The translations under genes were made by a program, and so were the position numbers. 64,000 nt of DNA, from positions 30,380,001-30,444,000 of the forward strand of contig OZ076415.1 in assembly GCA_964187785.1 (NCBI GenBank), read 5' to 3'. Source of the stretch: Amphiscolops sp. MND2022 (lineage: Eukaryota). Under the pieces are notes generated by a model, which searched no databases, was not told the DNA's origin, and was given only the letters and a program-made list of their open reading frames with translations. Positions 34,499-63,400 of the stretch are shown in pieces (the first letter of the stretch is position 1; the number at the start of each line of letters is the position of its first letter).

Positions 34499-34692
34499 AG
34501 TAGAAAAATTTTTGCAAGCCTAAAAGCATCCGGTGATCTTTGTTATCAAGTCTCTCTGCTATAAAGTTATGGTTTCGAAGTAATACAGTGTAAAATGATA
34601 AATAGAAAGGAAGTTTGAATAGATAGAACAAGGCTCCTATACAGGATCCCAAGAACTTGAAAAACCCAAGTATTGCATCACAAGCTTTTTAG

Positions 34693-35445: not shown

Positions 35446-36283
35446 GTAAATTCGCTACTAATTCAATTCATTTCACCAATTCAATGTTTCCGTTAACCTG
35501 GCATTCAACAAGAATTCTATTTTTTTAATATACCGAACAAATTCATTGCGATAGTTTTCGAATATGTATATATTTTGATCGCAAAACAAGCAAAACGTAG
35601 AGCTGGAAAAACTTTTGAAGTGCACTAACACAATACCAACGTCTTTGAATACTCTTAAAAACTAGTTTTTCAACCTAAAAAGATCTTTCAACCAGAGGAT
35701 CTTTTCAATGCTGGGATGCTAGTCGTTTGAGAATTTTGAGCTACGCGCACAAAGTCCGGGTACCTCATCGTGTTTGTAAAAACCGTACCTAGCATTGCCG
35801 AGTGTTTATACTTCGGCGGTCTGATGAAAAAAATCTATTTGAGCTTCGTGAAAGAGATCTTCGGGAAAACAGACAACCTGCGGAATTCTATCATTTAAAC
35901 TAAATAACAAGTCAGGAACGTCTCAAGTTGGTGCTTTGTTTAAGGCTCAAGAAGCACAGCGTTTTGAAAATATGCTTTGTGAAAAACACACAAACAAGTG
36001 TCGAAACATCCGAAGGGTGCTTTTCGTGCTCAGAAAAAGCTTCAAAAGTTCGGATATATCGTGCTGAGCCACGTGGGAGTGCTTGTTTGAATCTTGGCCT
36101 CCTCCTTAGGAAAACGTGATTTACTTCGAATGTAATGTCAAAATTCAGATACAGCGCAAAATGTTATCCGCTTCCTCTTCCTTTTCATATACATTTATGT
36201 CCCAAAAAGACTGCCACTGAGATACACATTTCATATTTGAATGATGTGTTCATTAAACACCCCAAAGACTCCAAAAGTAGGAT

Positions 36284-36790
36284 AAACAAGACGGGAACGT
36301 CTAAAGTCGGCGCTATATCTAAGGCTCAAAAGGAGCAAAGTTTTTAAAATTGTAAAAGGGGGCCCTTTAGACTTTTTCAAATCCAGTTTGTTGCAAAATA
36401 TCGAAAAAGTTGAAGGTGGGACAATTTGAAACATAATGACCTTTTGAGACATTAAAAAAATACATTTTTTTGAAACAATTTTCGAAAAAACGAAAAATGA
36501 GAATTTTGTAGCAGTCTCAGAGTGCCAAAAAACTAGAAAGGAGAGACCCTTTGGGCTTTTTGAAACTTCGGTTTGCTTTAAAATATCAAAACACTTCAAG
36601 GGGGGACCCTTGGCGACAAAAAAATTTCAAAAAAAGTCGACAGTGCGGAAAAAAATTCAACGGGGGACCCTGCCGTCCCGTCCGGTTTGGTATCTTACGT
36701 TAAAAATTGAGTACACGAAAGGGGGATCCTTTCCATCAATCAACTTAGATGCGTTTCCGTTTGCCGGTCCAGTAGTTCAGTAGTTCGGTA
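36284..36790 (+). repeat. Interspersed repeat, DINE-1/Helentron-like family
   Basis: Starts aaacaagacgggaacgtctaaagtcggcgctatatctaaggctc. Confidence 0.7.
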
Positions 36791-37324
36791 GAAAAGGTGT
36801 CCATTACGCATACAATCTGTGTTCTGACGAAACAAAATGAAAAAATCTTGCCATTGTAGTAGTCGGGCTCATTTTATGATGTGCCGCAAATTTGTAAATC
36901 TCTTCAATTTTGTCCAAAACCAGTTTGTTAAGAATGTAGAATTTGAAGATTGTAAAAATCTTCCCGAAAGCAGCAAAAACGATATGAGGCGTGCACGGAA
37001 AAGGCTCATAGTTTGACGTCCGTCATAAATGGGGTTTACACCAAGGCAATCCTGGCAGATGAAGGACACAGAAGAAACCCACACTGAAAATAGTTTGATA
37101 GATCTGGAGTGTATATGAATAGAGCACGTCAAAAGCTCATTTGAAATTAGAACAACGTTGGACAAATGAGACAAGAGAAAACCATCACTGTTTCTCCTTC
37201 TACCTCATCGAGGCAGAGAGGTGTTTTCGCAAGAAGACCTTCCTCGCTGACATCGTCACGTAAAGCTTTATTGTTGTATAAGGGGTCTTCTCCCTGCACA
37301 AACGTAGAATGAAGGCAAACAAAA

Positions 37325-37327
<3 letters not shown>

Positions 37328-37356
<29 letters not shown>
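37328..37356. repeat. (AAT)n microsatellite
   Basis: About 10 units. Confidence 0.95.
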
Positions 37357-37499
37357 TAGCAAACAAATGCAATCTGTGGCTTATTTTTTTACAAAATACT
37401 AGCATTAGACATTAGGACTATGATTGAACGACCTACCACGTAAGTGAATTCAAAATCTCATTGGGTAGAAATGAGAAATGAGAAATTGCATAGAAATGC

Positions 37500-37916
37500 A
37501 GCAACAACTTTAGCTGTTTATTTTTAGTCGGCGCTTTATCCTTTTAAGGAAAAATGCCCGACTATAGCAGTGACGCAAAAGCTTGCGAAGTAGTATTTTT
37601 ACATCATCTAAAGAAACTCAACGGGACCAAAGGGTACGCCCTCCTTACAGTCTTTTCGGCTCTGTGAGACTTTATTTTCGAAAAAATTTTTAATGTCTCA
37701 AAAGGGTCCCTCCTTCGAGTTTTCTCAAATTTTTCAACTGAATGTGTGTTAATCAATCCCAAAGGGTCCCCCCTTCTACATTTTTCGGTACTATGCGACT
37801 TTTTTTGAAAGAATTTTTTTTCAAAAATTACAAGTTTTAAGTTTTTTTTCCAAAAAAATGTTTTGCGCTTTTTGAGCCTTAGATATGGCGCCGACTTTAG
37901 ACGTTCTCGTCTTGTT
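37500..37916 (-). repeat. Interspersed repeat, same family, inverted copy
   Basis: Ends gagccttagatatggcgccgactttagacgttctcgtcttgtt. Confidence 0.7.
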
Positions 37917-39446
37917 ATTCATCACACCGTTGCTCTGATTCCGTACTACGGTCGTATCACAGAAGGTATTGTAGTTGAATGGTGCTCAAATATGGGAACC
38001 AGTTGGAAATCATCGAAGTTTTATATTGTCATCGAAAATAGGAAGTTGCCCCCAAAAAGAAAACCTACACTTTTTCTCGACTCGTTATGTTGGCTCTGTT
38101 TTTTGGGGTTGCAGTTACTCCAAAATGCTTCTTTTCCAGCAATTAGCTTTCTTCATAAGAAGGAGCTGCATTAGCCTCGACAGTACACCGAGAAATCGAA
38201 AAATTGACAAATTTTCGGCTAAATTTTTTTCAAAGCTTCATTTCTCCACAAATAATGGCCGCACCTCCAATCGGTTTTCTGTTTTTGAAAACCCTTTACC
38301 TAAGCTTTCAAATGCGCACTAGTTAGGTCGCGAGTTGGTGCCACTTGTTGGGATGAGAGCGCCACCCGGCGGCGCGGGTCCCGCTCTGCCGGGCCTTTCA
38401 AATATCAGTTGAACTCATAACTGAAGCTTCATTGAAAAAAACTTCTATATGCGTTTTCAATGGTGGCAAACTGTTTACTTGCAAAAAAAATCAGTCACAT
38501 ATTAAGTTTCGAAATAGCGTCGTATTCATCGTGCTATTTGATTAACGGTGATTACATAAGGTACTTACTTGAGAAACTTACGCGTGAACACAATGTCAGC
38601 AAAAATTTTGTTGAAATAGCAGCATTTTCAGTTGAAAAAGAAAATTAATTATATTGAATTTACGTTTCAGGATGAAGCCAAGAAAAGGAATGCCGTTGAA
38701 CCAATAGCAAAATCAGATGCATCAACATTGAAACCTGTTAAGAAATGATTGTGAACATTTTTTGCATGACTTCCTGAAAGGAATTGCATGGGTACGTAAC
38801 ATTAAACCAATGCAATTTCGACTGCTGTCGTTTCACCTTTGCACTGTTTCAACCTAGCGCAGTTTCGTCATAAACTAACTTTGGCAAAACAGTCCTAATC
38901 CCATTGAGTTCTCATTTCGTTACAAATCTAAGTAGTGAACCAAACAAGCTAAATTAATAGTAATTATTCACAACAATGCAGAAGCTTGTCAAAACCGGTA
39001 TAAAAAATAGCACTTTTGAATGTAGAAGTGTATGAAATTGAAAACCATTTACAATAATTGTATAACTAATAAGAATCTATTAGTCAAATTTAGCGTAGGT
39101 CAAAATTACAGACAGTTGAAAGAGAAACTGTGAGCGGTTGAAATGACAACGCTTGAAATTGCATAGGTAGAAGATACATAGGGTGAAATTTCCTGACACC
39201 AAATTGCAGTGCCCGCCATGTCATTTTCCATAAATTTCTCGCCTATTGTTCTCTTACTTATCTGGCGTAGATGATAATAGTAAATCCCTATAAATTGGAA
39301 ACAAAGGGAGATTGTCTAGAATGTAATTGAAAAAAGTTCAATTTTTTTCTGAAAGAAATGAAGTTTTGATTTGCAAATTGTTCTTGGACATTGTTTTTGT
39401 TAGATTCAATCAAAAAATTAGTTTTCGAAAAAGTTATTGGGTGCCA

Positions 39447-42400
39447 TCATTCATCCTTCCTTGGCGCTGATTTTTGGTTTTTGACAGAATCATCCAGAGT
39501 AGCTGGTTTGTTCGTTTTCAACTGAAAGAAAAACAAATATGAAATCATAATGAAATGAAATATAAATTCATTATCCAATTAAAATTACTTTATACGGTTC
39601 ATACTGGCTTAACCTCTACCGAGTTTCAGAAAAAAAACTGTCAGAACTTATCAAAGAAAGCTGTCAAAATATTCACAAACAATGGAATCTTTTTGTAGAT
39701 GAAACTGAGAACATATATAGCTTTATGTTGATCCTGTATGATGATCCTAAGTTGACTTGGTATAAAAGATTTTTAGAAATAGACATACATTAACCTTACT
39801 TAGAATATCAGAATACCAGAATACAACAAAATAATATCTTGCAAAATAATTGAACAAGTGAAAATTAAATTACAATCTTACAAACGGTTATGTCTGCACT
39901 TTTAAATGGAAATTCCTCACGAAAATATGAATGTAGTGTGTACAAAAACTTACTTCATGCTCAATTTGTTCATCCCGGGATTTATAAGGAGCTGGTCCGA
40001 ACAAGCTGAGGGCGACTGGTAAGAAAATCAAACCATGGAACAGTCCTAGCAGCGTGACAAGAAGAAAAATCTGTAATAAAAAAAACAAAAGAAGAGTTCT
40101 TGAAACTTTGAATGCCGGAAACGGCGCAAGTTGGCGCCCGGTTAAAGCTTAAACAAATGTAGAGTTCGCTGAAGACCTGTTCTTGAAAGATTCATCATAC
40201 CAAATGAGGATTTTTGTATCTTTGTATCTCCTTCAAACTGCGCTTTAAACCAATAAATAATCGAACAACATAAGTGGATATAATTTTGTTATATCCTCTT
40301 TGTCAAATCATTGTGATTGGACGATATATGTTTTTTACAGCAGTGTGCAAAAAATATCCCAGTGCCATTACGCCTCGTGTAAAATGTTTGTAAAATGAGA
40401 GGTGGTTTAAAGTTGATTGGGCCATGATTTGTTACAAGACCTAAATATCGAAAAAATTTCACGACACTGTCATAGGACAAGAATTATTTTCTAAAACGAA
40501 TAATAATTGGGGAAAATTACATCAATTCTAAAATTTTACTGGCCTCTTAAATCTGCATTTCAGTTCAGATTATTCTGTACCTTTTTTGGCGAGCTAGAAG
40601 GTGTTCTATTTTTTTCTCAAAGGCGTGTTGTAAAACTATACAAAAAACATCACAGTGCCCTTTGTCTCTATTAAAATTCCATCAAGAACTGATGGTGCAC
40701 CAGTATCTTCACTTCAGACAACTTTTCACAGAAAAAATTTCCTCCCAAATTTCTCAAAAACTAGAACCGAAATTCTCAATGTTTGTCAGTAACATTTGCT
40801 TGAAAGTTTTATACCTTGAAGAATGTCACGAATATGAAGGAAGTTGAAAAAGAAAGAGGTAGCACTGCCAAGAAGGTGCTGAAGCCACCATTGAACACTG
40901 CAGCTCCCATCTCTCTCAGAGAACGTCTCATGCGCTCTGGAATAGTTTGGAAGTAACAAGACGGGAACGTCTAAATCAGCGCTATATCTAAGACTCAAAA
41001 AGCGCAAAGGTTTTTAAATTGTGAAAGGGGGACCCTTTGGGCTTTTTGAAAATCCAGTTTGTTGCAAAATATCAAACAAAATTGAAGGAGACACTTTGAA
41101 GGAAAAAAATCAAAAAAAGTAGCACAGTGCCAAAAAAATGAAAGAGGGGACGCTTCAGTCTCGTCCGCTTTCGCAAACGCTCGAAAAAGTTTCTGGCTAA
41201 CGCAAAGACTGGCCCTGGTTGACCATCATGACTAACTCATGGATATTCATCCATGATCATGGATTGTTCAACACATTACATACTTATTCATGGAAAAACA
41301 TTGATGATTCATGGGAGAGTGACGCTTCATGGATCTTCATCCATGATTGTCATCCATGATCCATCTATGATTTGCCATGTTTAAAAAATTCGTTCGAAGT
41401 AGGCAAAATTTTCTGTGCGTGTCTCTTCCCATAAAATGGAGTTTTTTGTTGTTTATTGTCGTTTTTGTTATTATTAGAATTTCAGGTTTACCCTTATGAT
41501 AAAGTAGGATAAAGTAGGTAGGATTTCAGGCCGCAAGATAGGTAGGATTTTTGCTTTTTGTAGAGCATTTTTGTTAACTTCACAATCAAAAACTTAGTAT
41601 TATGGCTTCATTATTTTCATAATTCATCAATTCTAGTGTATTTAACTGACGATTTGACTTGTTTGTTTTCGACTAGATTTTTTGGTAATATTTTTTTCAT
41701 AAATCATAGAATCTAGTGTATTCAGTTTAACGGCCAGTTCAAGAACTGGACCTTCTCGTTAATTTGCATCGACGATTGTCCTCGTCATTGTGGATTTTCA
41801 TCCATGATTCATGGGTTTCCTTTCATGAATCATCCATGAATCATGGATATCTTTCCAAGATCATGGAATGATTCATGGCATGGAGATCCATGAATCATGG
41901 ATGAATCATGGATGAATATCCATGAATCAGCCATGATGGTTAACCTGGGGGAACCCGTGGCCACTGGGTTCCCCGTAAACCGGTTAAAGTCTGTACTAAA
42001 AAGTGGTACATACTACACGATGAGGGATGTGGTCTGAAGAAAAAAAAAAGAAAAAAAAACTAGCCCCTGTAATAGTCGGGCTCTTTTCACTAGAAAAGCA
42101 CCGACTAAAAATAGAGACCAAAACTGTATGAAGGCCAACCGATAATGGATTAAATTTTAGGACCTACTCTTCTACTGTCTCATAAAATTGGTTTTACGTA
42201 ATAAATCATCATCGGAACAAATGGAAATGGAATTAGCTGCCGCAACTCTGTGGAATGAAGTTCATTTTTTTGAAATACGTTCCGAGTGAGGCTTCCGATT
42301 ATTTTACAACAAACAGTTTTGATTTTTTTAATCTCAATATACGCCAAAAACAAATTTGTTTGCAGCTACAATTGTAGCCGAAACAAAATTATTGTTTATC

Positions 42401-45400: not shown

Positions 45401-48400
45401 ACAAAAATGAAACCGGACAGTTCGTACAAAAGACATTTCGTAAAAAATTTAATTGAACAGATTTGCAAAATAGGTCTCAAACAACAGAGTTACTAGCTTT
45501 CAGTGCTGTTACAGCCAATAAGTATGGAACCTGATTTGTAACGTCCGGCTAGCTAGCGGCGCACATCTAGGAAGAGGGACAATGTCTAGAATGCTTAAAC
45601 AGGAGACCATTGTCTTACTACATCCGTAGACACTAATTTTTGTTCCCAATATGGTCTCTGTCCCAGGCGTCCGCCTGTGATGGCAACTTGTATTCTATTT
45701 GCCACAACTATCAAAAAGCCCTACCCAACACGATCCATTTAAATTGAAACTTTTTAAATGAACCGCATTTGTATCTTAAAAGTCATGTAATTTATTTATT
45801 CTGAATATAAAATATCATGTAGGGATGATTTGATATTTCGTAATACCGGCGCTAATTTGTACGTTGCTAGTAAATTGGACACCAAGGCGTACAGGTAGAG
45901 GAAACGCGTTCAAATGTTTTCTCGCCTGTCGCCTTGGTCCACCGGTCCGATTAACTCGCTAGCCAATCACAGTGCAGTACTTTCTTTATTCGGTGCTGTA
46001 TTATGCTGCTAGATTAAAGGGACTGAGTGGCCATATGCCGCCAGTCAACAATATCTCGGTCCACTCATGTCGATTGGACGCTGAGTCCGTTTTGGAATTA
46101 AAGGCGCTTACTGGAAAGTGCTATGAATTACATAATAACCGGTGCTTTACTGTCTTATTTAGTAAATTATTAGTCCTTAGAGGACATGTAATCTGCATTA
46201 ATTAGTACGCCATCAATGCATTTGATATAATTCATGCAATTAGAAAGTGTTGAAATACATGCAGTTTATTGAGTTCATACATGTATGTCGTTGCTTGTCC
46301 GCATGGACCTCCAGTCTTCCCGCCACAATAACTGTCGGGAAAGGCCCTTTGATCTATGATGATGTCACTAGTTAACCGTTGCTATATTTAGAACTGTTGC
46401 TATTTTTAGAAGCCCTTAAGGCTATTATTAGAAAATGATGATCAATATTATGCGTGTCATGTAGTTTGTTATATATATAGCGGAGACATTTAGTCCCGGG
46501 ACACAAGAAGTTTGACCTTACTACATGCCTGTTACTTGATACTGAGTAATCTCACACTGAATTTGCAAGCCTGAGAACTTAATTTAAATTCTTACCTCTT
46601 GCAACAATCTCTTATGCCTTCTACTAGACATCAAAAAGCGAAAGCTAGGAAATCTAGGGAAATGGACATGATGTCCGACTTTGAAAACTTAGATGTGATG
46701 CTGGGAAATAGCAATAATAATCCCATAGAAAGGGAATTAGCTGAAGCTATAGATCAGTCATCGGCCCATGGGGACGCTGATACACATACGTACCTAGAGA
46801 ATGAATATAGAGATTACCAACATGAAAATGATGTACTGAGACAAAATGAAATCAGACACTCCTTTGAAACCTTCTCGAACGAGTTTAATCTCAGATTATC
46901 TCAAGAAATGGATTCTATGATGTCAATGATGCATAATCAAATAAATAGAGCTGTCACAACGGCTATAAATGAAAGAGTCATTCCAGAAATTCAAAACATT
47001 GCTAGTTCCATGTCCTCCGCTGGGCACAGGGACACTGAGGCCAGTTCGTCCCCGAATAGCCAGGAAAACAAGGAAAGCGCATCTGGGCCTAAAATAAAAA
47101 TTGCAAAGAAGGATTCACGATCTGTAGGAGATCTAAGAGAGACCCTAGGTCAGAGTTCTCACATGGTGACAGGAGCCATTGACACCCAACAGCAGATCCC
47201 TGAATTCCTGACTGGACGAATCCACTCAATCCCGAACCTCCAGAGGCAACATTCCAACCACAATGTCTCTCTGGACACGACTCTGCCAGCCCCAGACCCC
47301 GAGGTCCCAGAGCCACAGCAGGACCCGTTCAACAGATTGGCTGATGTATTAGTCAATTTGCAAAATAAACCACAAACTATGACCATCAGACCTGTCCAAA
47401 CAACTCCAATGACGTTTGACGGAAAAAGCGAAAAATTTGAGCTTTTTGAGGACTTGATCCACACGATGATCAAAATGCAACCTGCAATGACAGAACAGAT
47501 GAAATTCAACCATTTCCATTCATTGCTACGAAAAGGGGCATTACAGACATTTAGGAACATAAACTCCATCAACCGTCAGACTCTGGAAGACGTACTGGTC
47601 ATATTCCGGAGAAAGTACGTTAAACCGGAATCCCAACCGACGGCAAAACACAAATGGCATCGACTGACGTTCGACCCAAATACCATGAAATTGCCGGACT
47701 TCTTGGAAGAACTGAACCAAGGAGCTGAAAAGGCTTTTGGCGAAAATGCAAAAAGCATGATTGACAGTTTGTTATATGCGAAACTTCCACCAAAATTAAA
47801 ACGATCTGTCAACATGGCCCGGTTGGAGAACGGGACGTATGAAGAAATAGTCGCTCATCGTGAAAGAGAGCTAGAACTTAATGCATTAGAAGAGTCCGAT
47901 GACTTGCCAATGGCCACTATGGCCTCGGCGTCAACAAACCAGAGCAACTTACTCTCTACTGGCATCAACACCAACAAAGACGCTCCATGCTCTTATTGCA
48001 AAGCAACCGGACATTTTTACAAAAGCTGTCCTAAACTCAAGAAAAAGAAAGAAATGGAGGAAAAAGATGGCAAAAAACCACAGCGTCCTACTTACCCACC
48101 TTGTGACACATGTGGGAAAAAGAACCATTCAACTGAAAAATGTTGGCAAGGAGCAGGTGCCCACCTGCGTCCCAAGAGCTTACAAGCGGAGCAAAAAGAC
48201 TCAAACGCCTCAACTTCAGAAAGCAAACCTAAAACATCAGGTGACACGACGACCACCAGCTCAAGCCAATCCAATATCACAAAGACAGATCCAAAAAACT
48301 AATTTTGCCACGACTCCAAATACATGACTATATGTCGGTTCGACAGTATGTCATTTCAGACCCTCCAATTATAACATTCCGACACTATATAAAGGATACC

Positions 48401-51400
48401 ACAGGCACCCCATCCGTCGTCTGGCAGCAACAGATGGAGAAAGCCTGCATCAAAACCTATAAACAAGTACACAACGATCGCCCAGACCGATTTTACGAAA
48501 CTGACTATACTAAAGACTTTCAGACTCCATTCCGTCCCTTACCATTGGTCGAAGACTACCACCCTCAATACATTGACGCTGAGTATGGTAAAGATCCGTA
48601 TTGGGATGATGAATTATATGGCAAACGAAATCTCCAATTCCGGAACGAAGACTATCCCCCAACAGACGATGAGGACGATCCCCAAATAGAGGACACTAAA
48701 CTCTCTAGGGCCCTCATTGAACTTTGGCAACCAAATTCTGAAGCAATCACAAGAGAAATAAGGGAAACTCCAGAGCAAGAAGATCACCAAGACCCCAATA
48801 GCCTCCTGGATGAAACAGCCTTCTTGCATATTTTAGTGGAACAACAAGGTGAACCATCATACGTTCCTCTTTCCACTAATCTTGGACTTAAAATTAAAAG
48901 GCGGATGTTATATTTTCCAATGGACTTCGGAGAACTAACGTTAGATGGACTCATAGACACTGGGGCCCACTCCAGCGCTCTCCCAGAAGCAGACCTCAGG
49001 AAAATACGGCTATTAGCGCCTCAATCCATAGTCAAAGAGGGACCTGCCCCATCTTTCCAAATCATGGTCGCAAATGGTGACCTAGAGACTCCCAAAAGCA
49101 CAGTGGAATTGAAATTTGAAGTAGGGGACATTGAGTTCCATGAGATCTTCATTGTGATGGAAAAACTATCCAGCCCCATAATTGGACTTATGTTCTTACA
49201 AAGAAATCACACAGTCCTAGATATGCGCCAAGGCATACTCAACTTCCCCTTTTTCTCGATGCAATTGAAAACGGCTGACCACAAGTACTCGAACGTCATG
49301 GAGCCCATCCTCAATCCTGAGGATGTCACAATTCCACCAAATGACCGTACAATCATCTCCATTCAATCCAGAATTTACGCAGAAAATGCTGTCACTGGGA
49401 TTTTACAGCCCAGTGAACATCTAAATGAAGAAAATGATATACCCTTCTGCGCTGCCATAATTACACTCGATGAAGGGACCACGAGGATACACATTAATAA
49501 TTTTACTGACCAACCCTACAAACTCAAAAAGGGGATGCACATAGCCAACTTCTCAGTAATGACGCCAGAGCAGATGAAACACGTCAGGCCAATAGACCCG
49601 GTGTCCACATGGCACCTCCTCAATGAAAATGAAGAAGATGCTGTTCAATATATCAGCAGCCTTCTGAAAGCCAACAGGAATAACGACCAATATGAACAAT
49701 ACTGGTTCCCAACTCCCGAGAACCCGGGGGACGAAGCGTCCCACACGCCAATACAAAAACGAATACTCAGAGAATTGCGAAATTTGCAAGAAGCAGAAAG
49801 CCTCAATCCTCAAGAAAATGAAGAATCTCGGCAAACATTCCTCAGTAATTTTGATTGGAAAGACTCAATGCTACAACAGCATGAAATCAAACAAATAGAA
49901 GCTCTCTTAGTGGAATTTCATGACATATTTGCACGTCATAGATTTGATATTGGGATGAACGAGGAGTTCACGGTCAAACTGACCCCGAAGGACGACTCAC
50001 CCGCATACAGCCAGAGCTTACCAACTCCAATAAATTTAAAAGAGGATATCCTAGTTGAGCTGGCATTACTTCACAAATACGGTATTATAACTACTTTACC
50101 GTTCTCAAAATATGCCAGTCCTATTTTCGCGCAAAAGAAGCCTAACGGGAAGCTACGATTATTAGTAGACCTCAGGAAGATCAATAATTTGATTTCTGAT
50201 GATTATATTAATAACAACCACCCAGTTAGTACCTTGACGGACGCTACGCAACACATGGCCGGGAAGAGACTTTTTTGCAAACTTGATTGCTCACAGGCGT
50301 ACCACTGCCTCCAAATGGCAGACCAAAGGTCTATTGAAATGCTGGCCTTCAACTTTGCCAGCAGAACTTTCGCTTACAGACGATTGGCCCAAGGACTCAG
50401 TAGAGCCCTGTCGGCCTTCTCTAGCTTCATGAGGGAATACTTGGACCGCGTTATCAAGGCAGACCAATGTGCGCAATATGTCGACGACATTGGCATAGCA
50501 GCAAATGATGCCGAACATTTGATCAAAAACCTCCGAGCCACATTTGAATGCATAAGAGAGGCTGGATTAAAACTCACAATGCACAAATGTCATTTTGGCG
50601 CAACAGAAATTGACTTTCTGGGAAGAACAATCACCCCAGAGGGCGTCAAGCCTCAAAAGGAAAGTATCACAAACTTCCTAGAAAAAACTAACTTTCCGAA
50701 ATCCAAAAAAGCCTTGCAAAGATACCTCGGTTTCCTCAATTATTACAGAAACTACATACCGAGACTATCAGAAAAATTGGCTCCCTTCTTTCAACTACTT
50801 AAGAAGGACGAGAAGGTCTTAGTCACATCAGAGCTGATCGAACAATTCAACGAAATCAATAGAGACCTGGACCGGTGTAGCCAATTAGCCTTGAGGCAAC
50901 CACTGCCGAATCGACAGCTAGTCCTGATGACAGATGCCAGTTTTACGGCAGCAGGATACGCTATACTCACTGAAGACGATCCAAACCAGAAATTCACCTC
51001 AGTCAAGAAATCCTATGCACCTATTGCTTATGGTTCGAAAACTTTTATTCCTTCCCAACTTAAAATGTCGATATATGCGAAAGAATTTCTCGCTATATAT
51101 TACGCATTTAAAGAATTCGGACATATATTCTGGGGGACACCTAAACCGGTAATTATCCTTACAGACAACAAATCGGTCACAAGGTTCTTCCAGACCAAGA
51201 TCATACCGCCGCCATTATGGAATGCCTGTGATTTCGTCATCCAGTTCAACTTTATAATAGCCCACATTCCAGGCAAGAATAATACAGCGGCAGACTATTT
51301 GTCCCGTTTGGAAATGGAACCGACCGAAAAGTTAGTTTTGAAAATTCGTGCAGACGTTGAAACACAGCCTATTGAAGTCAACGTGCAGTCGGCCGGTGTG

Positions 51401-54400
51401 TCCGAAGAGGAACAAGTGTTCTTTACTGAGGAAGATAATGAAACGGAAGAACAAATCTGGGAACGAAAACGACAATCAAAAGCAGGACTCAAGGTCCCGG
51501 AGACTGTCATCCAAATTGATGCCATATCCGAAAATATCGTCGAAGAAATTACTAATTTCACCCAGAAGCTCCGTAGAACTAATCAAATACTGCTAGAGCA
51601 ATCCAAAGACCCGATATTACTTCAATTAAAGGCAAAAATTCAGAATGAAGAATACTCTGAGGAGATCCTCCAACAGGACATCAGGTATAGACATTATTTG
51701 AACAATCTAGACCGAATAGTCCTCAAAGACGAAATTGTCACAAGGAAATACTATGACGAAACAGGCCAAATTAAACACCACCAGATATTACTGCCCAAAC
51801 ACTTGTTAAAAGAATTACTGCAAGCAATACATGGCACGGCCCATAAACACCCGGGCATATCCAAAATGTTACAAGAAATTCGCCAAAAATACTACTACCC
51901 TGGGATAGCCAAACATGTTAAAAAATGGGTAGAAGGCTGTGAGACGTGTGCCAGAGACAAAAGAGTCCCTAACAATACAATCACGCCAGAATTGTTAAAT
52001 TTGCCCGAGTGGGACCTAGGTCCCGAAGATGCCATGCGATCGACTTACTACCAAATCTACCGACTAGTGGAGGATACCAGACAGTGATGACGGCTATTGA
52101 TATATTTTCAAGATACCTATTCGCCTACCCGCTAATTGAGGCAACAGCCACGAATGTAGCCAAGGTGATAATTGACATAATGACGAAACATTCATATTTG
52201 CCAACAACTCTCATCACAGACAAGGGGTCCTCATTTACATCGACCATCATAGCTGAGATAACTCAAATTTTGGGCATAACACTCAAATGCGCAACTACAA
52301 AGCACCCGCAAACAATTGGCAAGCTGGAAAGGACGCATGCCTCACTCAAAACCAATTTGAAAATGGCCTCAGGAGAGTATCGACGCCAATGGCATAAATA
52401 CCTGCCACTAGCAGTACTCAACTATAATACCACATATCACTCCAGTATTGGATGTGAACCGAGTAAAGTCTTTCATGGCCGAATTCCTTTTAACGTCCTA
52501 GATCACAAATTGGGGAACAATCCCAATAAAAATTTCATGCCAACTACAGACTTTGCGGAAGAAGTGCAACAGCGGACACAAATCCTCATTGATCAGACCA
52601 AAATAACATAATGCAGTCCTACCTAAAGTATAAGGACAACTACGACCGAAAGGCTAAAGCGGCTCCGCTTAAAGAAAACGAATATTGTTTTATTCTACAA
52701 CCTAAAGCGGACAGTCAAGCATCAAAGATCCCATTCAGGGAATACAGGTGGATTGGCCCCTTTGTCGTTCAGACAGTACTGTCCAATGACAATTATATTG
52801 TGCGTCGATTAAATACAAATAAAACGCAAATACTACATCGCATTAGATTAAAGAAATTCGTACCAAATGCCCCCTTAGAGGACAAATATGAAGGTGAAAA
52901 ATTACAGCCCGACAATGAGATAGTAATACCACAAGACGACTTGTATTCCATCTCATGGGAAGTGGATTTTGAGTACGACTTATTTGAACCGAGAAAGGAA
53001 GATTGGACCGACGTGGCCACACGCCGGCCGACCGACACTGAGGACAGCTGTGCGGATCATTACGTCATTGAAAATGAACGCAGCAACGCGAGCGAAAATG
53101 AAAGCCGCTCCGAACGAATTAACGAGGATGACGTCACCGAGAATGAAATATGGCCAACAAAGAAGAATAACAGTGACGAATCGTCCCCGCTGAACGAAAC
53201 GCCATATGAGGACGACAATGAAATTGACGTCACTAATGATTTCAAAAATACGGAAAGCGTTTCAAACAGAGGCGCAGATATTACCGTGCCCGGAATATCG
53301 GAAAAAGAAAGCTTTGAAGAAAACTCTAGCCCTAGAGGAGGGAGATATAACCTTCGACCTAACCCCAACCCCAACTTTACTGATGAATACAGATACTAGC
53401 CAGAAATTTGAATTACTAGTCCCCTCTTTATTTTGACTATTGGTCCATGAGGACATTCATTTTTTACTTGGGACTTTCTGACTTACTTTGTTACTTGAAA
53501 TAATTATGTACAATAAAGAAGACCTAGTGGCGAATAATACAAAGCCACGCCCAAACAAAACAACAAACAGATGAAATAAATATAAAGCAGTTTACAACAA
53601 GTACAGTCTAGAAACAAATGTACTCTTTGTACATTTAAGATTTAGAAGTTCCAGGAGCGTTCACATCACTGGACTTTGCGGCTTCAGTTTCACCAGCTGC
53701 CCGAAAGCCAACTTTCTTGCCTTTACCAGGGGACAGCTTACGTTGTTTCCCCCCTTCTTTGGACGAGGAATTGGAAGCGGACTCGATGTCAGGACGGACA
53801 CTCTTGCCCAGAGCTTTGTAGACTGCGATTAAGGTTTTATGTAAATTAGCTTTGCCGAAACTGTCTACGTGTGACCAAGGGTCTCCTGGGACGTTGCCAA
53901 TATTGAATCGGAATTCCAGATCTTTGAATGTACCCAAGGAAGCTTCTGTAGTGCACACAGCCACTGAATTTGCCACATTAGCTAGGTAAGACTGTGCAGG
54001 CATGATGACATCGAAAAGTCTACTTCGGGGATCATTGCAATCAACTCCAGAGAATTTGATGGCTGGGAGCTCTGGCAACTTAGAAGTCAGGCACAGACAA
54101 CTCAACTGGAAGATGTAGAACAGATGTTTCCGCAACTTCAATTCAGGCATACCAATCTCCACGAAATCGACGTACTCGTCTCGGGCATCAGTCTCTGGGG
54201 AATTCTCTAACCAGCCTCGCAAACTAAAGGATCTGTACAGAGCGGAGAAACAATATGTGGCTTGCTCAAGCGGCAGACTCAGGAGGGCTACTGGATCGAA
54301 ACTGCCCAGGCCTCTTACGATACCAGCATTCAGGCTAATGTCGGCAAGGATGACTTTCAAAAGATGGACGAGGTAACCTCGGGCCTTGGTGGCGAAATCG

Positions 54401-57400
54401 TCCCGAATGGCCTCAGCTGCTGTCTCCGTCTCTTCAGGCGTCAGTTGCTTCTCGCTATATATTCTCTTGACGCGAGCATGGCATGCGGCATCCAAATTTT
54501 CTTTGAGCTTCAAGCGACTCAAGAAATCTCGGTTAGACAGTTGTCGCCAATTCTGTCCTTGTAAATCGCCCAGCGACTTCCAGTCCAGGATATCAGGCAC
54601 GTGTCTGGGAAGTAGTGCTCGACCTGCCAACTTGCGGATGAAAGTATGGAACTCTCGGAAGGTGTAGAAGCCACTATCCCTTCGCTGTGCAAACTGACTC
54701 TCGAAGCTCTTGGTGTCTGGAAAACAAAACATTACCATCCTGAAGGGTCCCTATGACACCATTAGACCTAACGTGTCAATCTACTATATCTCGCATGAGC
54801 CTCAAATAGTGGTAAGAGAAACTGAGACCATGAGGTCCGTAGACAAGAGGGAAACCAATATACTAACAATCGCGGACAATTCGTGCGAAGAACTCCAGCT
54901 TGATGGTGAAGAAATCATCAGCTATGATTTCCCACTCGAGGCTTTGGGGCTTGTTTTTGACCCCCTGGTGGACCTGTGGTGGTGCTATCTTCGTCAAATG
55001 CTGGTGCACAGACTTCCAGTTCGCAATCAGTTCCGAACATATGGCTGGTACAGCGGCAATTTCCAGGTGATAGGTAGTCATCGCCTACAATCAACATGTT
55101 TATTGGAGGCAATTCAAAACTGGACCTACAGTCTTACGGACAGTGACCTTACCTTAACGAATTCTGGCATTAGGGCGGCCCAGGGCTGTCCACCGCAATC
55201 GTCCAAGAATGTAACCAGAAACTTCAACTGAGAGAAGAAACTGATGGTACCAAACACGCTGCCCCATCGTTCATGCATCAGGTCCGGCAGACAAAGAGCA
55301 TCAAATCGAAAAGGGTACTCAATCCCTTTTTGGAAGAGGCAAGAACGTTCAAGAAGAGGAATCACCTCTACAGGACACCCAGACACGCTCACAATCTGAG
55401 GTTGTGTTGATAGGACGGACAAGAGACGGGAAAGTACCAACAGGAAACCAGCAGCAGGCTCTGAAGCAGTCCGGTATCGTAGCAAACGGACGACATTGAG
55501 GGATTCGCCCTTCCAGAACCGGATCGAGACAAAGCTGTAGGTGCCTCGCATTTCAAACTCCAGAGAGTACTGACCCGTGACACTGACTTGATACGCGATG
55601 TCAGCGATGCCACAGAGGAAGATGTGATGAAAGATCGTCTAAAACAAAATTAACCAGGATGAAAATGAATCGGGGCTACGTTAGGGCTAAAAGACCCTGA
55701 GGCTAGAAATCGCCAATACTTACTGTCAGTTTGGAGGAGCCCCAATCGTAAGGAGAGAACAGACTCTGATGGTTGGTAACAGTGCCAATCTGTGACCATA
55801 GCGACTCAAGGACGTTTAGATCTCCACAACGAGGAGCGAAGAGAGCAACCATGGAGATTTGGACGCACAGTCTGATCTCCTCCTGCCCAGCGATGGAGCC
55901 CAGGCCAGCCATATGATCCTCGTAGAAGGGGTTACTGCTGCCAGTTTCAACCAAAGGAACTTGCATGAAGAAAGGCTTCTCTTTCTCAAGTTCTAAGGGA
56001 GTCAACAATTGGCCCTTCTTCCCTCTGACTTCGTGCACAATCCGGCCAGTCACCTTGTCCTTCTTCCTTAAGTGCTCATATCTCCAGCGCTGATCTTTGC
56101 GGAAATGCGGCTCACACTGGAAATGGCGGACAATCTCCCGAGCTCCTTTTGAAAAAATGGAAACGTTCGTCTTACATATCTGGCAGTAGAACTTATGTTT
56201 ATTGTGCTCTGGGTCAAGGGGGCCGGTGACGAATGTGCGAGTCCACTGAATTCCTTTGAAATAGGCTTCTTTCATTATTTTGCCTGTGCGTCCAGGAAGC
56301 CGACGACGTTTGCGAGGTGGACTTGAGGCAGAAGCTTGGTCAGTGGTCAATGTGGCTAAAGGCTCATAGTCGGTTGAGCAGAATCCTGGACTAGGGACTT
56401 GTTGTGCGGATGATGGTCCAGATGTTGAAGTCGAACTTTGATCTGGAGGACTTGGAGGGGGATTGATGCTCAGATCCTTGCCAGTTCTTTGCGAATTGAT
56501 GACAAACTCATCTTCCGAACTGAGCGCTCCACTAGTGTACCCCTCAGTCCCAACGTCACTGTCTTCCGCACCTGATCCAAGGCTGCCGCTCTGCTTACGG
56601 AAGATCTTGATTCGCTGCTTCCCGGATCCTTGAGGAGTCCCTTGGGAGCGAATTCCCGCCCGGATCGCTTCTTCCAGCATGTTCTTCATTTGGTGTAAGG
56701 AAGAAGTAATGGTTTCCGTGGAGACGGCACGCAAGATGGAATGGACTTGCCCCTGATTGAAGGCTACGGCCGCATGGCCTACCGGGAGGATGCACGGGTT
56801 GGTCTCATTGAAATGCTGATTTATGAGCGTTCGAGCAGAGGCAGATAGAGGCCTGGTGGGACTGAAGAGCTTCGGGGAAGATGTGCTTGGTAACTCAGCC
56901 GAGGTTGATGGCTTAACATTCTCATGGGTCTCGGTCCCAGCGGAGCTTAGCGCATCCAGTGCAATCAAGAAAGGAGGTTCCTTGACGGTCTCAGCACCTG
57001 AACTATCAAGCAATTCTTCAGCGTCGCTGGTATCTGTTTGAAAGTAATCCGCCTTGGTGACGGAAAATCCAGCTTCACTGACAGCATCATTGCCCCGCTC
57101 AATCTCAGCCTCAGGAGACTCCTTGTCTTGTGACCCAGTCGTGACCTGGGGAATTGGCTCCGACTCAGAAGCTTTCTCAGCGGTTGGCTTTAGTACATTG
57201 TCTACAATGGCAGATGTGGTAGGAGGCAAGAAAGAGATGTCCAATCCAGTGCCTTGACAACCTAGAGTCTGCAACTGACGCTCAATGTACGCAGAGATAC
57301 TCTCATCGGTGGAAGGGATGGGAGTTGGATCAGTCCTAGCTGAGCTGTCTTTTGGCGGATCAGGCTGCTTAGTCTCCGCGTCCTTTATGGCAGTGGCGGT

Positions 57401-60400
57401 CTGGTCGACGACTGTTTCTTCAGCCTGTTGTGGAACTTCTTCTTCTGTTGAAGCCCCAGTAGCGGTAGCGGGAATGATTTCATTGTTCTCTTCGGACGAC
57501 ATGTCTAAATAGAAAGAGATAAAATTAAGCGGAGAACTTCCTGAAAAAGAGTCCATTGCCGCATTAAAAAATCTTCCGGAAGTAGATATTTGAACTCAAG
57601 TGAATGCTTGAGTTATGGGACAGGAAGTACGTGAATGAAATGAGAGCCCTGATCAAGCCTCAAACTAGTTCATTACCAAAAATAGAAATGAAAACCCTTG
57701 AGACGCTACTGACCTGTGTGGACTAAATTGAAGGAGAGAAGTTCTGTATGTAGACTGTGGATGCTGGGTGAATGGTTAATCCTGGAAGTCGGTCTGACGA
57801 AAAGAATTATGTTGGGCTAGAAGTAGTAGTTGAACAGCAGAAGCTGGGTGAGAGAAGCAGATTCTTCTTTGAAAGAGGGAGAGGATGTTGAATATGGGTG
57901 AATTTGCCAAAAGGGACTCAGTGTCGATTGTCCTAGACTGTCCCAAGAAATCCAGAGGCGTTGTAACAAAGTGAAATTACAAAAGGAAACTTCAAATGAA
58001 ATGGAAATAAATATGACGCAAAGACTAAAAGACTAAAGATGATTAAATACTGGCGATAATACAAAGAGAGTAACTGGAGAAGAATTCGAATGTAAAAGAA
58101 TTGAAAGCTGAATTGGCAATGTGACAAAGTGTCAAAATTGGAGTTCGTGGCTATACAGTTTGGTGTCAAATTTGTTATTATTTACAATTTACAGTGTTAT
58201 GTGGATAGAGTCTGCCAGCGATATCTACAATTACTTATTCATTTCGAAAATGTACCATTTTACAAATTATTTCATGATTTTCCAAGATTTCATTAATTTC
58301 AAGGTCATTTTACATTAGTCCTTATATGGATTTACGACCTTGGGGGGCCATTTTATTCAGAAAAGATCGTGCTGCATTCCTATTGGCCAATCAAGATTGC
58401 TGGGGAACGGCGTGGCTGACTGCCATAGCTCACCCTCTTGAAACCTTTAAGTGCTTGATAAGTGTTAATAAACACTTGAAGCGGCACTCTTAATATGGAG
58501 GTGTTGACAAAACTGATGTAAGCCAACAAGGCCGTTGTCGGCGTTATCAAAGAAGGCAAGACGGATAGATGAAAGATATTACCAAGATGGAATTTGTTAT
58601 TGAAAATTTATCCTTCTCAGGAGACGCAAAACCCCGGGAAACTGAGACGAAAACTCCCGCTAGTCGACGGAAGGGAAGGCCGCCATTGTTCTACAATCAT
58701 TTGCAACAACCAGTTGGCTATTTGAAATAAAACTCAAAAAACTTCTCAAAAGAAATCTCTCCGAAAATTGCAAAGAAAATAATTATGGACAAATTCCTAT
58801 CAAGCCATTTCGACTCAGAGTCCCCCGAGTACTTCCCTGAAGACTTTCTGGGCGCAGCCCCAGGAGACGGAATAATTTGCATATCCAGTGATGATGAAAT
58901 GGAATGTGTGAGCAGAGCTTCAGTAGACGACCTAGAATCTCTATCCGACGATGATGAAGTGGCTTTACTGGCGGAATGTGTAGAAAGACAAATGGAACTC
59001 CCATTAGCCTCAGAAAACATTCCAGTGCCCTCCTGTTCAAACCAACAGGGAGAAGATCGCTCCGAGGCCCCCAGGCTCTCATACATCCCTGGACCAATGT
59101 TCGATGCTGGATACTTTGATCTAGGAATGGGGAGAGGGCCAGTCGCAAGAGACACAAGGCTCAAAAACGATCATCCGATTAATATTTGCAGCCAATTAAT
59201 TCCAATGGTGGACACGCCAATGTCCCCCCCTGCTGTAGATAAATACCCTACAGGCGACTGGAGAGCAATGGTAGAGCCCTCTACTAGTAACAAGCAACAA
59301 TGCCCAAGTGGAATACACTTTAAAGGCCCTAGCGACGACAATCCCTACATCACGGGCTGCACAGACTGCCTCATCTGCGGAAAATCTGTGGAACAGATTC
59401 AAGATGAAGCAGTGATTGACTACATGCACAAGACGGCTGTCCGAGGGGAGTCCCCAGAACAATTCAATGCCAGAAGACTAGCGTTCTTAGAAGGAATGAA
59501 GGTGGGCTGCTTCATGCTAATCCCAGGGGGAGTGTCCCAGGCGTCCGCCTGTGATGGCAACTTGTATTCTATTTGCCACAACTATCAAAAAGCCCTACCC
59601 AACACGATCCATTTAAATTGAAACTTTTTAAATGAACCGCATTTGTATCTTAAAAGTCATGTAATTTATTTATTCTGAATATAAAATATCATGTAGGGAT
59701 GATTTGATATTATGTAATACCGGCGCTAATTTGTACGTTGCTAGTAAATTGGACACCAAGGCGTACAGGTAGAGGAAACGCGTTCAAATGTTTTCTCGCC
59801 TGTCGCCTTGGTCCACCGGTCCGATTAACTCGCTAGCCAATCACAGTGCAGTACTTTCTTTATTCGGTGCTGTATTATGCTGCTAGATTAAAGGGACTGA
59901 GTGGCCATATGCCGCCAGTCAACAATATCTCGGTCCACTCATGTCGATTGGACGCTGAGTCCGTTTTGGAATTAAAGGCGCTTACTGGAAAGTGCTATGA
60001 CTTACATAATAACCGGTGCTTTACTGTCTTATTTGGTAAATTATTAGTCCTTAGAGGACATGTAATCTGCATTAATTAGTACGCCATCAATGCATTTGAT
60101 ATAATTCATGCAATTAGAAAGTGTTGAAATACATGCAGTTTATTGAGTTCATACATGTATGTCGTTGCTTGTCCGCATGGACCTCCAGTCTTCCCGCCAC
60201 AATAACTGTCGGGAAAGGCCCTTTGATCTATGATGATGTCACTAGTTAACCGTTGCTATATTTAGAACTGTTGCTATTTTTAGAAGCCCTTAAGGCTATT
60301 ATTAGAAAATGATGATCAATATTATGCGTGTCATGTAGTTTGTTATATATATAGCGGAGACATTTAGTCCCGGGACACAAGAAGTTTGACCTTACTACAT

Positions 60401-63400
60401 GCCTGTTACTTGATACTGAGTAATCTCACACTGAATTTGCAAGCCTGAGAACTTAATTTAAATTCTTACCTCTTGCAACAATCTCTTATGCCTTCTACTA
60501 GACGTCAAAAAGCGAAAGCTAGGAAATCTAGGGAAATGGACATGATGTCCGACTTTGAAAACTTAGATGTGATGCTGGGAAATAGCAATAATAATCCCAT
60601 AGAAAGGGAATTAGCTGAAGCTATAGATCAGTCATCGGCCCATGGGGACGCTGATACACATACGTACCTAGAGAATGAATATAGAGATTACCAACATGAA
60701 AATGATGTACTGAGACAAAATGAAATCAGACACTCCTTTGAAACCTTCTCGAACGAGTTTAATCTCAGATTATCTCAAGAAATGGATTCTATGATGTCAA
60801 TGATGCATAATCAAATAAATAGAGCTGTCACAACGGCTATAAATGAAAGAGTCATTCCAGAAATTCAAAACATTGCTAGTTCCATGTCCTCTGCTGGGCA
60901 CAGGGACACTGAGGCCAGTTCGTCCCCGAATAGCCAGGAAAACAGGGAAAGCGCTTCTGGGCCTAAAATAAAAATTGCAAAGAAGGATTCACGATCTGTA
61001 GGAGATCTAAGAGGGACCCTAGGTCAGAGTTCTCACAGTCTCCTAGGAGATTTTTCTTTCGTCAAAGGAGGCTCCTCTAGCTAGAGCTCCGAGGCGACGT
61101 GCCGGCACTCTCAAAGTCCGGACACACCCCCACAAGCCTGTAAAATTGAATCCTAAGGTTTTTCCCGCAACTCCTACATACTTCCGAGGTCCAAAAAGGT
61201 ATCTAACTGAAATACATTATATTTGGGAAATAAGGACTGAAATGGAGACCTAGTAGGTCAAACATCATCCAAATACTCTGTAAACGGTAACAAAACACGG
61301 GTATAAGCCCCAATAACATTACAGTTCGGATTTGGTCATCAGTCTGGCATCTGGCATCATTCCTCATCTTCGGGGCACAATGGTCTCATTTGGCATTTTT
61401 CTGCCGAAACCCTGTCTTTTTGTTGTCAGATGGCACAATTCCTGATTCTCTCGCCTTCTGGGTGATGACATCTCGGACATTCACGTTCCTGAGTGGGGGT
61501 GGGTTTTTTTGCCTTTATTTTGCTTCCTCTACGGTTTTCGTACCTGCCGGGTCGGCCATCTTGAATGTGCTTGTTTGATACCGCACATTTCGAATTTTTG
61601 ATCGAAATTTTCAAAAAATTCTGCAACGTCCCTTGCCTGACGTTACAATTCAATTAAAGAGGTTAGCATATATGTTGTATGGCTCGGTCGCTTCGCTCCC
61701 TTCGCCAAGTAGCAACATAGAGGCATGGCCAAATGGCACGTCGCTCCGCTTCGCTTCGCTCCTGCATTTAGGGCCTAGGGGTATGTGAACATAGCTGACT
61801 ACGTTATAAAAGTAAGTTGTATAATATAAATTGCACTAAATGTCGGGTTTCATTTTTGTACGAAATGTCTGGTTTCGTTTTTGTACGAAATGTCTGGTTT
61901 CGCTTTTGTACGAAATGTCTGGTTTTGGTTTTTGTACAAGATGTCGTGTGTACGAAATGTCGTGTGTGCGAATTGTCGAGCCCCCTAAATCCTTATATCT
62001 TTCTTGTACAAGTCAACAGGAGATACAACAGAACTAATTTTCTTATATTTCATTTTTGAAAAGTTGCAAGATGAAAACATGTATATTGAAATTGAAAGCA
62101 CAATTATCAACCCACTTTGAATATTGACAACAGTTGAAATCGCTCGGATAATATGAGAACAGACGAAATTTGCTGCAATCATGCAAAAATCAAACACAAA
62201 AACTAGTGTATCCATTGAAATTGGTTTAAAAGATACATGTAAGTATGGCCGTTTCACTGCCCTGGTTAATTCAACTGGTATACATTTACCTTGGCTGTTT
62301 CCCACGATAGAAAAATTTGCGTGTATATAAACGCGTTCTCTGCCCCGAAACCCATTCTGTCGACGACTCTCCGTGAATCCTGCATTGCTACGATTCCCTC
62401 AGTGGAAGTTGAAACTTCGGCCACTTTCAAGTAAAATCGGGAGCTCTGAAAAAGTGAAGATGGATGGTAAGTGAGTTTCAAAACCGATGTTTTGGATGAT
62501 CATCAAGAAGAACATTTTTTTTCGTGAGATACCTTATTCCTTATTACGTATGTACTTAATAGTACGAGTATAATATCCTTGCAAAATTATATTACAAAAA
62601 CAAAACATTAGCATCTAAAATTACAGATATTTTTGGGAGGATCGTTTTTTATGATAATCCAGCCGAAAGTGGCAAGTTGTTTTTTTCTAAGCAGTGTGCA
62701 TCAGTTTTTAACCGTCAGTGCTTTATTTGTAGATGATAGTTTTCTGTAGTCAGAAACTTGAAAATTGTCAAAAACTTAACTTCATGAAATAGCAGCTCTT
62801 AAGCTGTGAAATAGCATTTTTGCGAAAAGAGGGGTAGATTAATAAGCTTTAAAGGAATATTCAGTTCAACTTTCTGAAACTTGATGATCTTGAAAAAATC
62901 ATTCCCATGTTGACAAAAAATTCATTCCTTTCAAGAACCTTGCAAGATTCTTGCAAAAAAACACATTACTTACAAAAACAATTTTCTTGCAAGTAATCAA
63001 AACTGATGACAAAAGTTTCTAAAAAGAAACAATTACTGATATGGAAGTCTTCTCTCCAGTTTCTGCGAAATTTACATCATGCTCGAACGAATTCGCTTCG
63101 TTGTTGATGAACTTTTTGGCCAGATATGTCAATTATTCAATGTTAGATGGCTTTCCTGAACAACAAAAATACAAATTTAACAAAAACCCGTGGTGCCAAA
63201 AATATTTCTCAAATACATCTCAAATACACGCTTTTTTTGATATCGAAATTAGCCGTTGCTAGTTAATCCTCTTCTGCAATCTTCTCAATTTCATAGAATT
63301 ATTTTTTCCGCCCTAAATTTCCACAGGGGAAGTTTGAACTATTTTTTCAGTCCGATTTTTTTTTCATTTAACAAATTTTGTTGTTCAAAAATTAGAGTTT

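Follow-up and report, generated by a model that had tools for sequence, protein, structure and literature searches.

The window analysed here, a 64,000-nucleotide stretch of contig OZ076415.1 from Amphiscolops sp. MND2022, contains a Ty3/gypsy LTR retrotransposon. Comparison of the window with itself revealed two direct repeats of 1505 nt each, the 5′ LTR at 45659-47163 (+) and the 3′ LTR at 59533-61037 (+), which are 99.4% identical with nine mismatches and no gaps; so low a divergence (0.6%) indicates a young insertion. The LTRs start with TG and end with CA, and both outer edges of the element carry the 5-nt target duplication GTCTC. The sequence immediately 3′ of the 5′ LTR, the position of the primer-binding site, starts with TGG, while a polypurine tract, AGGGGGAG (59525-59532, +), abuts the 3′ LTR. 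The gag gene (46614-48302, +) has its ATG inside the 5′ LTR, at 46614, and reads across the LTR end and the primer-binding site; the 3′ LTR has a TATA-like run at 60344 and closes with the first 180 or so codons of gag. The pol gene (48245-53399, +) encodes protease, dUTPase-like, reverse transcriptase (RT), RNase H and integrase parts, of which Pfam recovered protease, RT, RNase H and integrase between the LTRs in Ty3/gypsy order; in the window copy the integrase part is broken over three frames (near 52000-52090 and near 52600). The GT-AG introns described below mark the host as a eukaryote, and a C-type lectin gene marks it as an animal. Background on LTR-rich animal genomes is given in PMC9911081.

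Two further genes lie head-to-head between pol and the 3′ LTR, with starts 1.3 kb apart. The first is an antisense gene (53635-57499, −) with four predicted exons and GT-AG introns at 55723-55639, 55152-55085 and 54867-54717 (85, 68 and 151 nt), a model that is open for 1186 codons; the third exon was picked for its best-looking splice sites from 20 choices that keep the frame open, and a three-exon model is not open. The predicted protein of 1186 aa has a basic NLS-like run and a C2H2 finger, which ESM Atlas places, as a lead only, near the Spin-doc/GT2D2 (0.90) and BED (0.89) fingers. A possible hAT-transposase origin of the gene found no support in Pfam or the PDB. With the last exon as query, 99 clusters were recovered among 5083 candidates, down to 33% identity, so that, judged by this exon, the antisense gene appears to be a conserved multi-copy family equally deep as that of its sense neighbour. 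The two genes are unrelated in sequence. Ten contigs of matching size occur in both hit lists (75 clusters for the sense gene and 99 for the antisense gene), four of them below 50 kb, which indirectly suggests that both genes are carried as a pair. The spacer between them (57500-58784) is a candidate internal two-way promoter: it contains two CCAAT boxes that face each other at 58382-58391, sites resembling splice acceptors at 57505 (−) and 58620 (+), and a 53-codon ORF (58569-58730) with a basic RRKGRPP run.

The second gene, the accessory ORF (P0001; 58785-59621, +), encodes 278 residues with no internal stop: an acidic, disordered N-terminus with modules resembling SUMO-interacting motifs (SIMs), a Pro-rich linker and a Cys-containing helical C-terminal domain. 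An earlier reading of the sequence alone had described an intact 278-aa ORF spanning the polypurine tract and ending in U3, and this description holds: the frame crosses the tract, the LTR edge falls within codon 250, and 28 more codons and the stop follow inside the 3′ LTR, the stop lying 89 nt in. The same sequence-only reading had made its proposal depend on conservation of the ORF among copies, and conserved copies are plentiful. A single-sequence search returned 75 clusters among 394 candidates (97-35% identity; 804 member sequences), none of which carries a name or a Pfam domain, and a profile built from 25 of these relatives reached, down to about 25% identity, 420 representatives at E≤0.001, with the top 150 listed. 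Sixteen subfamily representatives are mutually 23-61% alike, and the close relatives include clusters of 33-138 near-identical members. Among pattern matches, relatives were confirmed in 0 of 18 from viral contigs, 0 of 41 from prokaryote genomes and 1 of 191 from metagenomes; this last, L001, is the only relative with DNA. No longer, fused form was found among 928 candidates, which argues weakly against one. A conserved N-terminal extension was rejected since the frame in which the upstream DNA is translated differs among the six proteins that have an extension, and upstream of the ORF the DNA likeness between the window and L001 showed no clear excess over shuffles (1 of 200 reached the same level).

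Several observations indicate that the frame is maintained as a protein. Against L001, pN is below pS both in the 61 codons before the LTR (0.38 vs 0.71) and in the 19 codons inside it (0.25 vs 0.79); because silent sites are saturated, only the direction of these differences counts. Conservation reaches 220 codons upstream of the LTR, and a lineage would have a chance of about 5e-4 of keeping the frame open through 150 replacements. The strongest conserved block, of the GGVSQAAACDG type, overlies the polypurine tract and the first LTR bases, and within it codon-position identity is 0.68/0.79/0.42, the third positions varying freely; by this measure the block is kept at the protein level besides its role as DNA. 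Given that the TG of the LTR sits in the same codon of the accessory ORF in the window and in L001, and that the same accessory-ORF peptide tail opens both the solo LTR at 31280-29391, from a distant subfamily, and the remnant at 34499, the overlap of ORF and LTR is fixed in the lineage. We conclude that the accessory ORF is almost certainly a real gene and, on the strength of these comparisons, that it has been kept as a protein-coding gene across the whole radiation of its animal Ty3/gypsy lineage, in-frame overlap with polypurine tract and LTR included.

Frames that overlap the polypurine tract and/or U3 are familiar from HIV/SIV Nef, foamy-virus bel2/Bet and MMTV sag. The term 'Nef-position', used in the sequence-only reading, is apt for the location of the frame over the polypurine tract and U3, but nothing ties the accessory protein to Nef itself. 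Nef has an N-terminal Gly2 for myristoylation whereas residue 2 here is Asp, and neither the sequence nor the fold of the Nef core was among the matches listed from Pfam, PDB and structure searches, the last made with a weak model. What the accessory ORF shares with Nef, bel2/Bet and sag is position only.

The C-terminal domain is marked by conserved cysteines. It had been suggested that a CTDCLIC cluster, here residues 192-198, may bind metal. Its last two cysteines are indeed conserved (C195 in 59/61 alignment rows, C198 in 57/61), while the first, C192, is present in only 21/61 and is often replaced by Tyr or Phe. The CxxC formed by Cys195 and Cys198, followed by GK (59367-59378, +; 91/96 and 90/96 rows), is instead joined by Cys135 (59187-59189, +; 57/61 rows) and by the LTR-encoded Cys256 (59550-59552, +; 89/93 rows). 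Each of the four occurs in 57-59 of 61 rows, and 54 of 67 rows have the complete set; a candidate zinc site made of these dispersed cysteines is the simplest reading; H178 (52/61) and H130 (44/61) are further candidate ligands. Between Cys135 and the CxxC lies a candidate proline-directed phosphorylation site, [DE][ST]PxSP(P) (59211-59231, +), which is found in 57 of 97 rows including fragments, with S147 in 75/86 rows and P148 in 73/85.

Structure prediction of this domain had been proposed as a check in the sequence-only reading. AlphaFold2 models built with 97 and 96 sequences (pTM 0.31 and 0.45) are confident only at an amphipathic helix and over the CxxC and hairpin (residues 195-240), with low confidence at residues 120-190 and 245-260. 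The predicted helix (residues 55-71; 58947-58997, +; pLDDT 79-87) is conserved, and in one clade its position is occupied by an acid-first SIM-like motif; the predicted two-helix hairpin (residues 202-240; 59388-59504, +; pLDDT 88-97) is the one sizeable stretch modelled with confidence, the models being weak overall. A homodimer model with zinc scored 0.29 against a mark of 0.32. P0001 has no basic NLS-like run and no transmembrane segment, the top 19-residue hydropathy mean of 1.44 falling on the predicted soluble hairpin. Database searches were uniformly negative: Pfam gave nothing significant with P0001 (best E 0.084), and with 97 family members no family in more than four of them and no RING family among the first 25 of 36 families listed; PHROGs matched 0 of 6 proteins, PDB sequences reached at best E 0.18 against the family profile, ESM Atlas gave no usable match for the accessory protein, Foldseek found nothing at E≤0.001 in the PDB or among viral structures, and a wide VIA-align search returned a generic hairpin (best Z 5.8, rmsd 2.7, 45 aligned). 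A Rad50 zinc hook match in 1 of 97 members (E 0.023) does not count as support. Foldseek rows to Rhino-Deadlock (E 4.5-5.1) and to small RNA-polymerase chains, which we take to be RPB10/RpoN, also CxxC proteins (E 4.8-9.9, rmsd 7-12), are at noise level.

The N-terminal arm was the starting point of the sequence-only reading, which had matched IICISSDDE to the SIM consensus. The match is sound: residues 30-38 (58872-58898, +) comprise the aliphatic core IICI, two adjacent serines and an acidic tail, and lie within predicted disorder (block pLDDT 45-53). A second, weaker SIM-like module follows at residues 47-58 (58923-58958, +; relaxed pattern). The motif exceeds chance expectation: the strict phospho-SIM pattern arises in 0.75% of whole-protein shuffles and in 1.0% of shuffles of the acidic first 100 residues. 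Conservation in homologs had been named as the check on the motif, and the motif is kept far beyond the surrounding N-terminus. Our counts cover 55 of 218 proteins (at least 240 aa, with a Met start and the C-terminal domain covered), which form 17 clusters at 55% identity. A forward core-Ser-acid motif is found in 37 of these 55 near-full-length proteins and in 13 of the 17 clusters, against 0.12 expected from shuffles, although subfamilies share ancestry and are not 13 independent trials; the strict core of three V/I/L occurs in 10 of 17. The 18 proteins without the forward pattern are truncated, substituted or belong to a four-member clade.

Since the patterns were defined post hoc, after the alignment had been viewed, and the clusters share ancestry, relative conservation is the sharper test. 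Across the 16 subfamily representatives the eight SIM columns score 2.84, compared with 0.31 for the 118 N-terminal columns and 2.59 for the C-terminal domain, and in alignment rows S34 is present in 44/44, S35 in 38/44 and D36 in 40/45. At the third, central position of the core Tyr or Cys is found in most cases, and certain subfamilies have Pro at the first, so that there the SIM-like core would be weaker than the textbook one. Two modules are present in 8 of 19 representatives, against 0.04 expected (relaxed pattern); one protein, P0216, carries a forward motif at residue 187, a non-homologous internal position; and in the four-member clade (support 99/99) the forward core has decayed and an acid-first version is found in 4/4 by a loose pattern and 2/4 by a stricter one. 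Such turnover points to a functional linear motif. Among 19 representatives, the calcineurin PxIxIT pattern occurs in 0 and a LIR-like one in 1, so that neither of these readings fits. ZNF451 carries an inter-SIM PxRP, to which the TPRP-like run here, some 40 residues past the second module, does not conform.

Proteins such as PIAS and Daxx carry phospho-SIM modules. In PML, the hydrophobic core of such modules is flanked by acids and CK2 phosphorylation of the adjacent serine raises SUMO affinity (PMC3533183). The accessory arm resembles the PML modules in its order of hydrophobic core, serine and acids and in its disordered setting (PMC3533183), and differs from them in sitting on a retrotransposon protein, in its turnover between forward, tandem and acid-first forms, and in that its SUMO binding is putative. 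Based on these features, we believe that the arm probably binds SUMO. Such a SIM would fit activation, targeting or self-restraint just as well as counter-defence. The overall layout recalls the SUMO-targeted ubiquitin ligase RNF4, in which tandem N-terminal SIMs are followed by a C-terminal zinc-binding part, to which the SIM-like modules here (two in 8 of 19 representatives by the relaxed pattern) and the candidate zinc part would correspond; however, a RING has eight ligands, whereas only four cysteines are conserved here, scattered along 120 residues on either side of a helical hairpin, and the accessory protein would be at most an adaptor.

We tentatively propose, as the reading we favour, that the accessory protein could act as a SUMO-reading adaptor that promotes the element through the SUMO system, a role that we hold to be somewhat short of probable; that it is specifically counter-silencing, as the sequence-only reading had speculated, seems to us doubtful. 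In Drosophila, piRNA-guided silencing needs SUMO, SetDB1/Wde being recruited through their SIMs, and SUMO-SIM contacts are a known weak point of transcriptional silencing (10.1101/533091). In our model the accessory protein would be made from a subgenomic RNA, by an internal promoter or splicing. Its arm would bind SUMO, more tightly once the two serines were phosphorylated, and its zinc-stabilised C-terminal domain would tether it to a partner or to the chromatin or RNA of the element. The tether may plausibly be the divergently encoded zinc-finger protein, which bears the NLS-like and DNA-binding features that the accessory protein lacks; the only pointers to such a partnership are gene layout and contigs of matching size in the hit lists. 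At the element, the accessory protein would occupy or reroute SUMOylated nuclear factors, competing with SIM-bearing silencers of the SetDB1/Wde type, and element transcription would be favoured. The boldest form of this model is a two-gene cassette in the manner of complex retroviruses, in which the antisense zinc-finger protein finds the element DNA and the multi-SIM zinc protein takes over, or else blocks, the step of piRNA/H3K9me3 silencing that depends on SUMO. We regard this form as somewhat unlikely; were it true, the element would encode an antagonist of SUMO-dependent silencing, which could explain the mass expansion of the lineage. How animal transposons resist silencing is a long-open question with few protein-level examples.

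There are several rival explanations. The first is that the accessory protein is an acidic co-activator of transcription, comparable to foamy-virus Tas or HTLV Tax, and that its arm recruits general transcription factors, the 'SIM' being part of an activation domain, while the antisense protein binds DNA. Residues 1-75 are strongly acidic (21 D/E, 3 K/R) and contain 23 hydrophobic residues, a make-up similar to that of acidic activation domains; the amphipathic helix at 55-71 is conserved, and the divergent gene pair encloses a CCAAT pair. Activation domains, however, usually need less exact sequence than what is conserved here, namely an ordered aliphatic core and then Ser-Ser-acid, an arrangement that recurs and that one clade has in reverse. 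We judge co-activation unlikely as the explanation of the arm, and note that it and the SUMO-adaptor reading can both hold. A second rival keeps the SUMO contact and gives it another use, either self-restraint, through silencer recruitment and copy-number control, or the guiding of integration or of particles towards nuclear bodies and chromatin rich in SUMO. The motif evidence is the same for this as for escape, and host silencers use SIMs likewise (10.1101/533091). We nevertheless consider these uses decidedly unlikely, as the lineage is abundant and recently active and a pro-element function fits that at least as well as self-restraint or targeting.

A third rival, which we find improbable, is a Rev-like export factor for unspliced genomic RNA resembling CERV of the C. 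elegans element Cer1, with the Cys4 site binding RNA and [ST]PxSP acting as a phospho-switch. CERV, a regulatory protein of an animal Gypsy-type element, has no homologues beyond its own lineage, contains a loop with four dispersed cysteines and depends on a proline-directed phosphosite (PMC10309623); at the motif level, the four dispersed cysteines and conserved [DE][ST]PxSP of the accessory protein are comparable, and the acceptor-like site at 58620 would suit a spliced message. In contrast, the accessory protein is acidic (44 D/E, 20 K/R) and has no basic RNA-binding run, and the clear introns of the element are on the antisense strand. CERV, furthermore, has 517 aa, is made from a spliced mRNA sharing gag sequence, carries an NLS and NES and exports genomic RNA, with no SIM reported and 'SUMO' absent from the main text of the paper (PMC10309623), whereas the accessory protein has 278 aa, is acidic and lies across the polypurine tract. 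Of the animal systems CERV comes closest, but it differs in position and in job.

It is very improbable that there is no functional protein at all and that the frame stays open merely through DNA constraint on the polypurine tract, LTR end and promoter: the coincidence of the strongest block with the tract and first LTR bases would suit this, but it is largely refuted by the free third positions inside that block, the conservation 220 codons upstream of the LTR and the low chance of the frame remaining open. A degenerate env-like or membrane protein is scarcely credible, for although env-like genes lie where this sense ORF does, between pol and the 3′ LTR (PMC7264820), the maximal 19-residue hydropathy of 1.44 falls on the predicted soluble hairpin and the acidic N-terminus has no leader-like stretch.

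Returning to the proposed SUMO-reading adaptor, the standing example of transposon anti-silencing is VANC of Arabidopsis VANDAL elements (PMC5735166, PMC10398659). Like VANC, the accessory protein is encoded by a transposon and could counter epigenetic silencing; VANC, however, belongs to a DNA transposon, recognises specific DNA sequences and targets DNA methylation (PMC5735166, PMC10398659), whereas the route here would be SUMO and the anti-silencing activity is hypothetical. In the open-access literature, our search found no description of the accessory family or of any SIM-bearing retrotransposon accessory protein, nor, in that literature, of a transposon-encoded antagonist of SUMO-dependent silencing, and passages of two reviews (PMC13269885, PMC10144533) name no SIM-bearing retroelement accessory protein. 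The family is real and, as far as the open-access literature goes, undescribed; in it, SIM-type motifs were retained, doubled and invented anew as the remaining N-terminus decayed.

The arrangement of the element has parallels in plants. Gypsy elements such as Retand, Grande and RIRE2 have a long region between pol and the 3′ LTR with conserved extra genes in sense or antisense (aORFs), mostly of unknown function, among them an antisense gene that has a promoter of its own and a product predicted to bind DNA (PMC7264820, PMC11963269). The element described here differs in its animal host, in an antisense gene that has introns and a C2H2 finger rather than TRP28, and in a sense gene that runs into the LTR and bears SIM-like motifs, the latter not described for plant aORFs in passages of those papers (PMC7264820, PMC11963269). 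With its LTR-internal gag start, dUTPase-like domain, spliced antisense gene and Nef-position gene, the carrier is an unusually complex Gypsy element.

The LTRs of the Ty3/gypsy element that carries the 278-aa accessory ORF hold coding sequence at both ends. The accessory ORF finishes in the 3' LTR, and the gag start codon lies at LTR position 956, so that about 180 gag codons fall within U5; the N-terminal part of gag is found inside both LTR copies (46614-47163 and 60488-61037, forward strand), and the gag frame continues from the LTR through the primer-binding site. This layout is shared by a 1890-nt solo LTR at 31280-29391 on the reverse strand, flanked by the target duplication GCTGA, which is a member of a distant subfamily: its beginning matches the tail of the accessory-ORF family (E 2.9e-6) and its end the gag N-terminus (32% identity). 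A further LTR-start remnant, at about 34499-34398 on the same strand, also matches the accessory-ORF tail (E 1.2e-5).

Within the carrier, pol begins in the -1 frame where the gag stop sits, and an A-rich slippery-type heptamer (48290-48302, forward strand) directly precedes that stop, from which we infer that the gag-pol junction may be read by ribosomal frameshifting. Between protease and reverse transcriptase, at about 49316-49564 on the forward strand, is a dUTPase-like stretch whose Pfam match (E 8.5e-4) falls below the curated cut-off.

When the DNA immediately 5' of the accessory-ORF start codon is translated, six relatives (33-78% alike) give one and the same short peptide, and this conservation suggests that a cis element may lie there. 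Just 5' of the accessory ORF there is also a 53-codon ORF (58569-58730, forward strand) with a basic RRKGRPP run, which we take to be AT-hook- or NLS-like.

The antisense gene is modelled as four exons encoding 1186 aa (53635-57499, reverse strand), with further splice choices in exon 3 that also keep the frame open. Its product carries a stretch resembling an NLS, along with a C2H2 finger of the BED/Spin-doc-like kind. The last exon, which has no Pfam family, matched 99 clusters when searched alone, at identities down to 33%. Opposite exon 3 and two introns, a stop-to-stop frame of 177 codons (54698-55231, forward strand) had no match in Pfam and is probably a shadow.

Elsewhere in the window, a host-like ORF at 7127-8158 (reverse strand) encodes a C-type lectin domain, and another at 33722-34249 (reverse strand) resembles, by eye, its N-terminal part. 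A perfect direct duplication of 430 nt (26964-27821) reflects either a recent event or an assembly artefact. Short dispersed repeats in both orientations, together with a 25-nt tandem array (15400-16300, 36280-38600, 40970-41170; 18556-18709 with 61656-61809; 61831-61930), are probably other small mobile elements.
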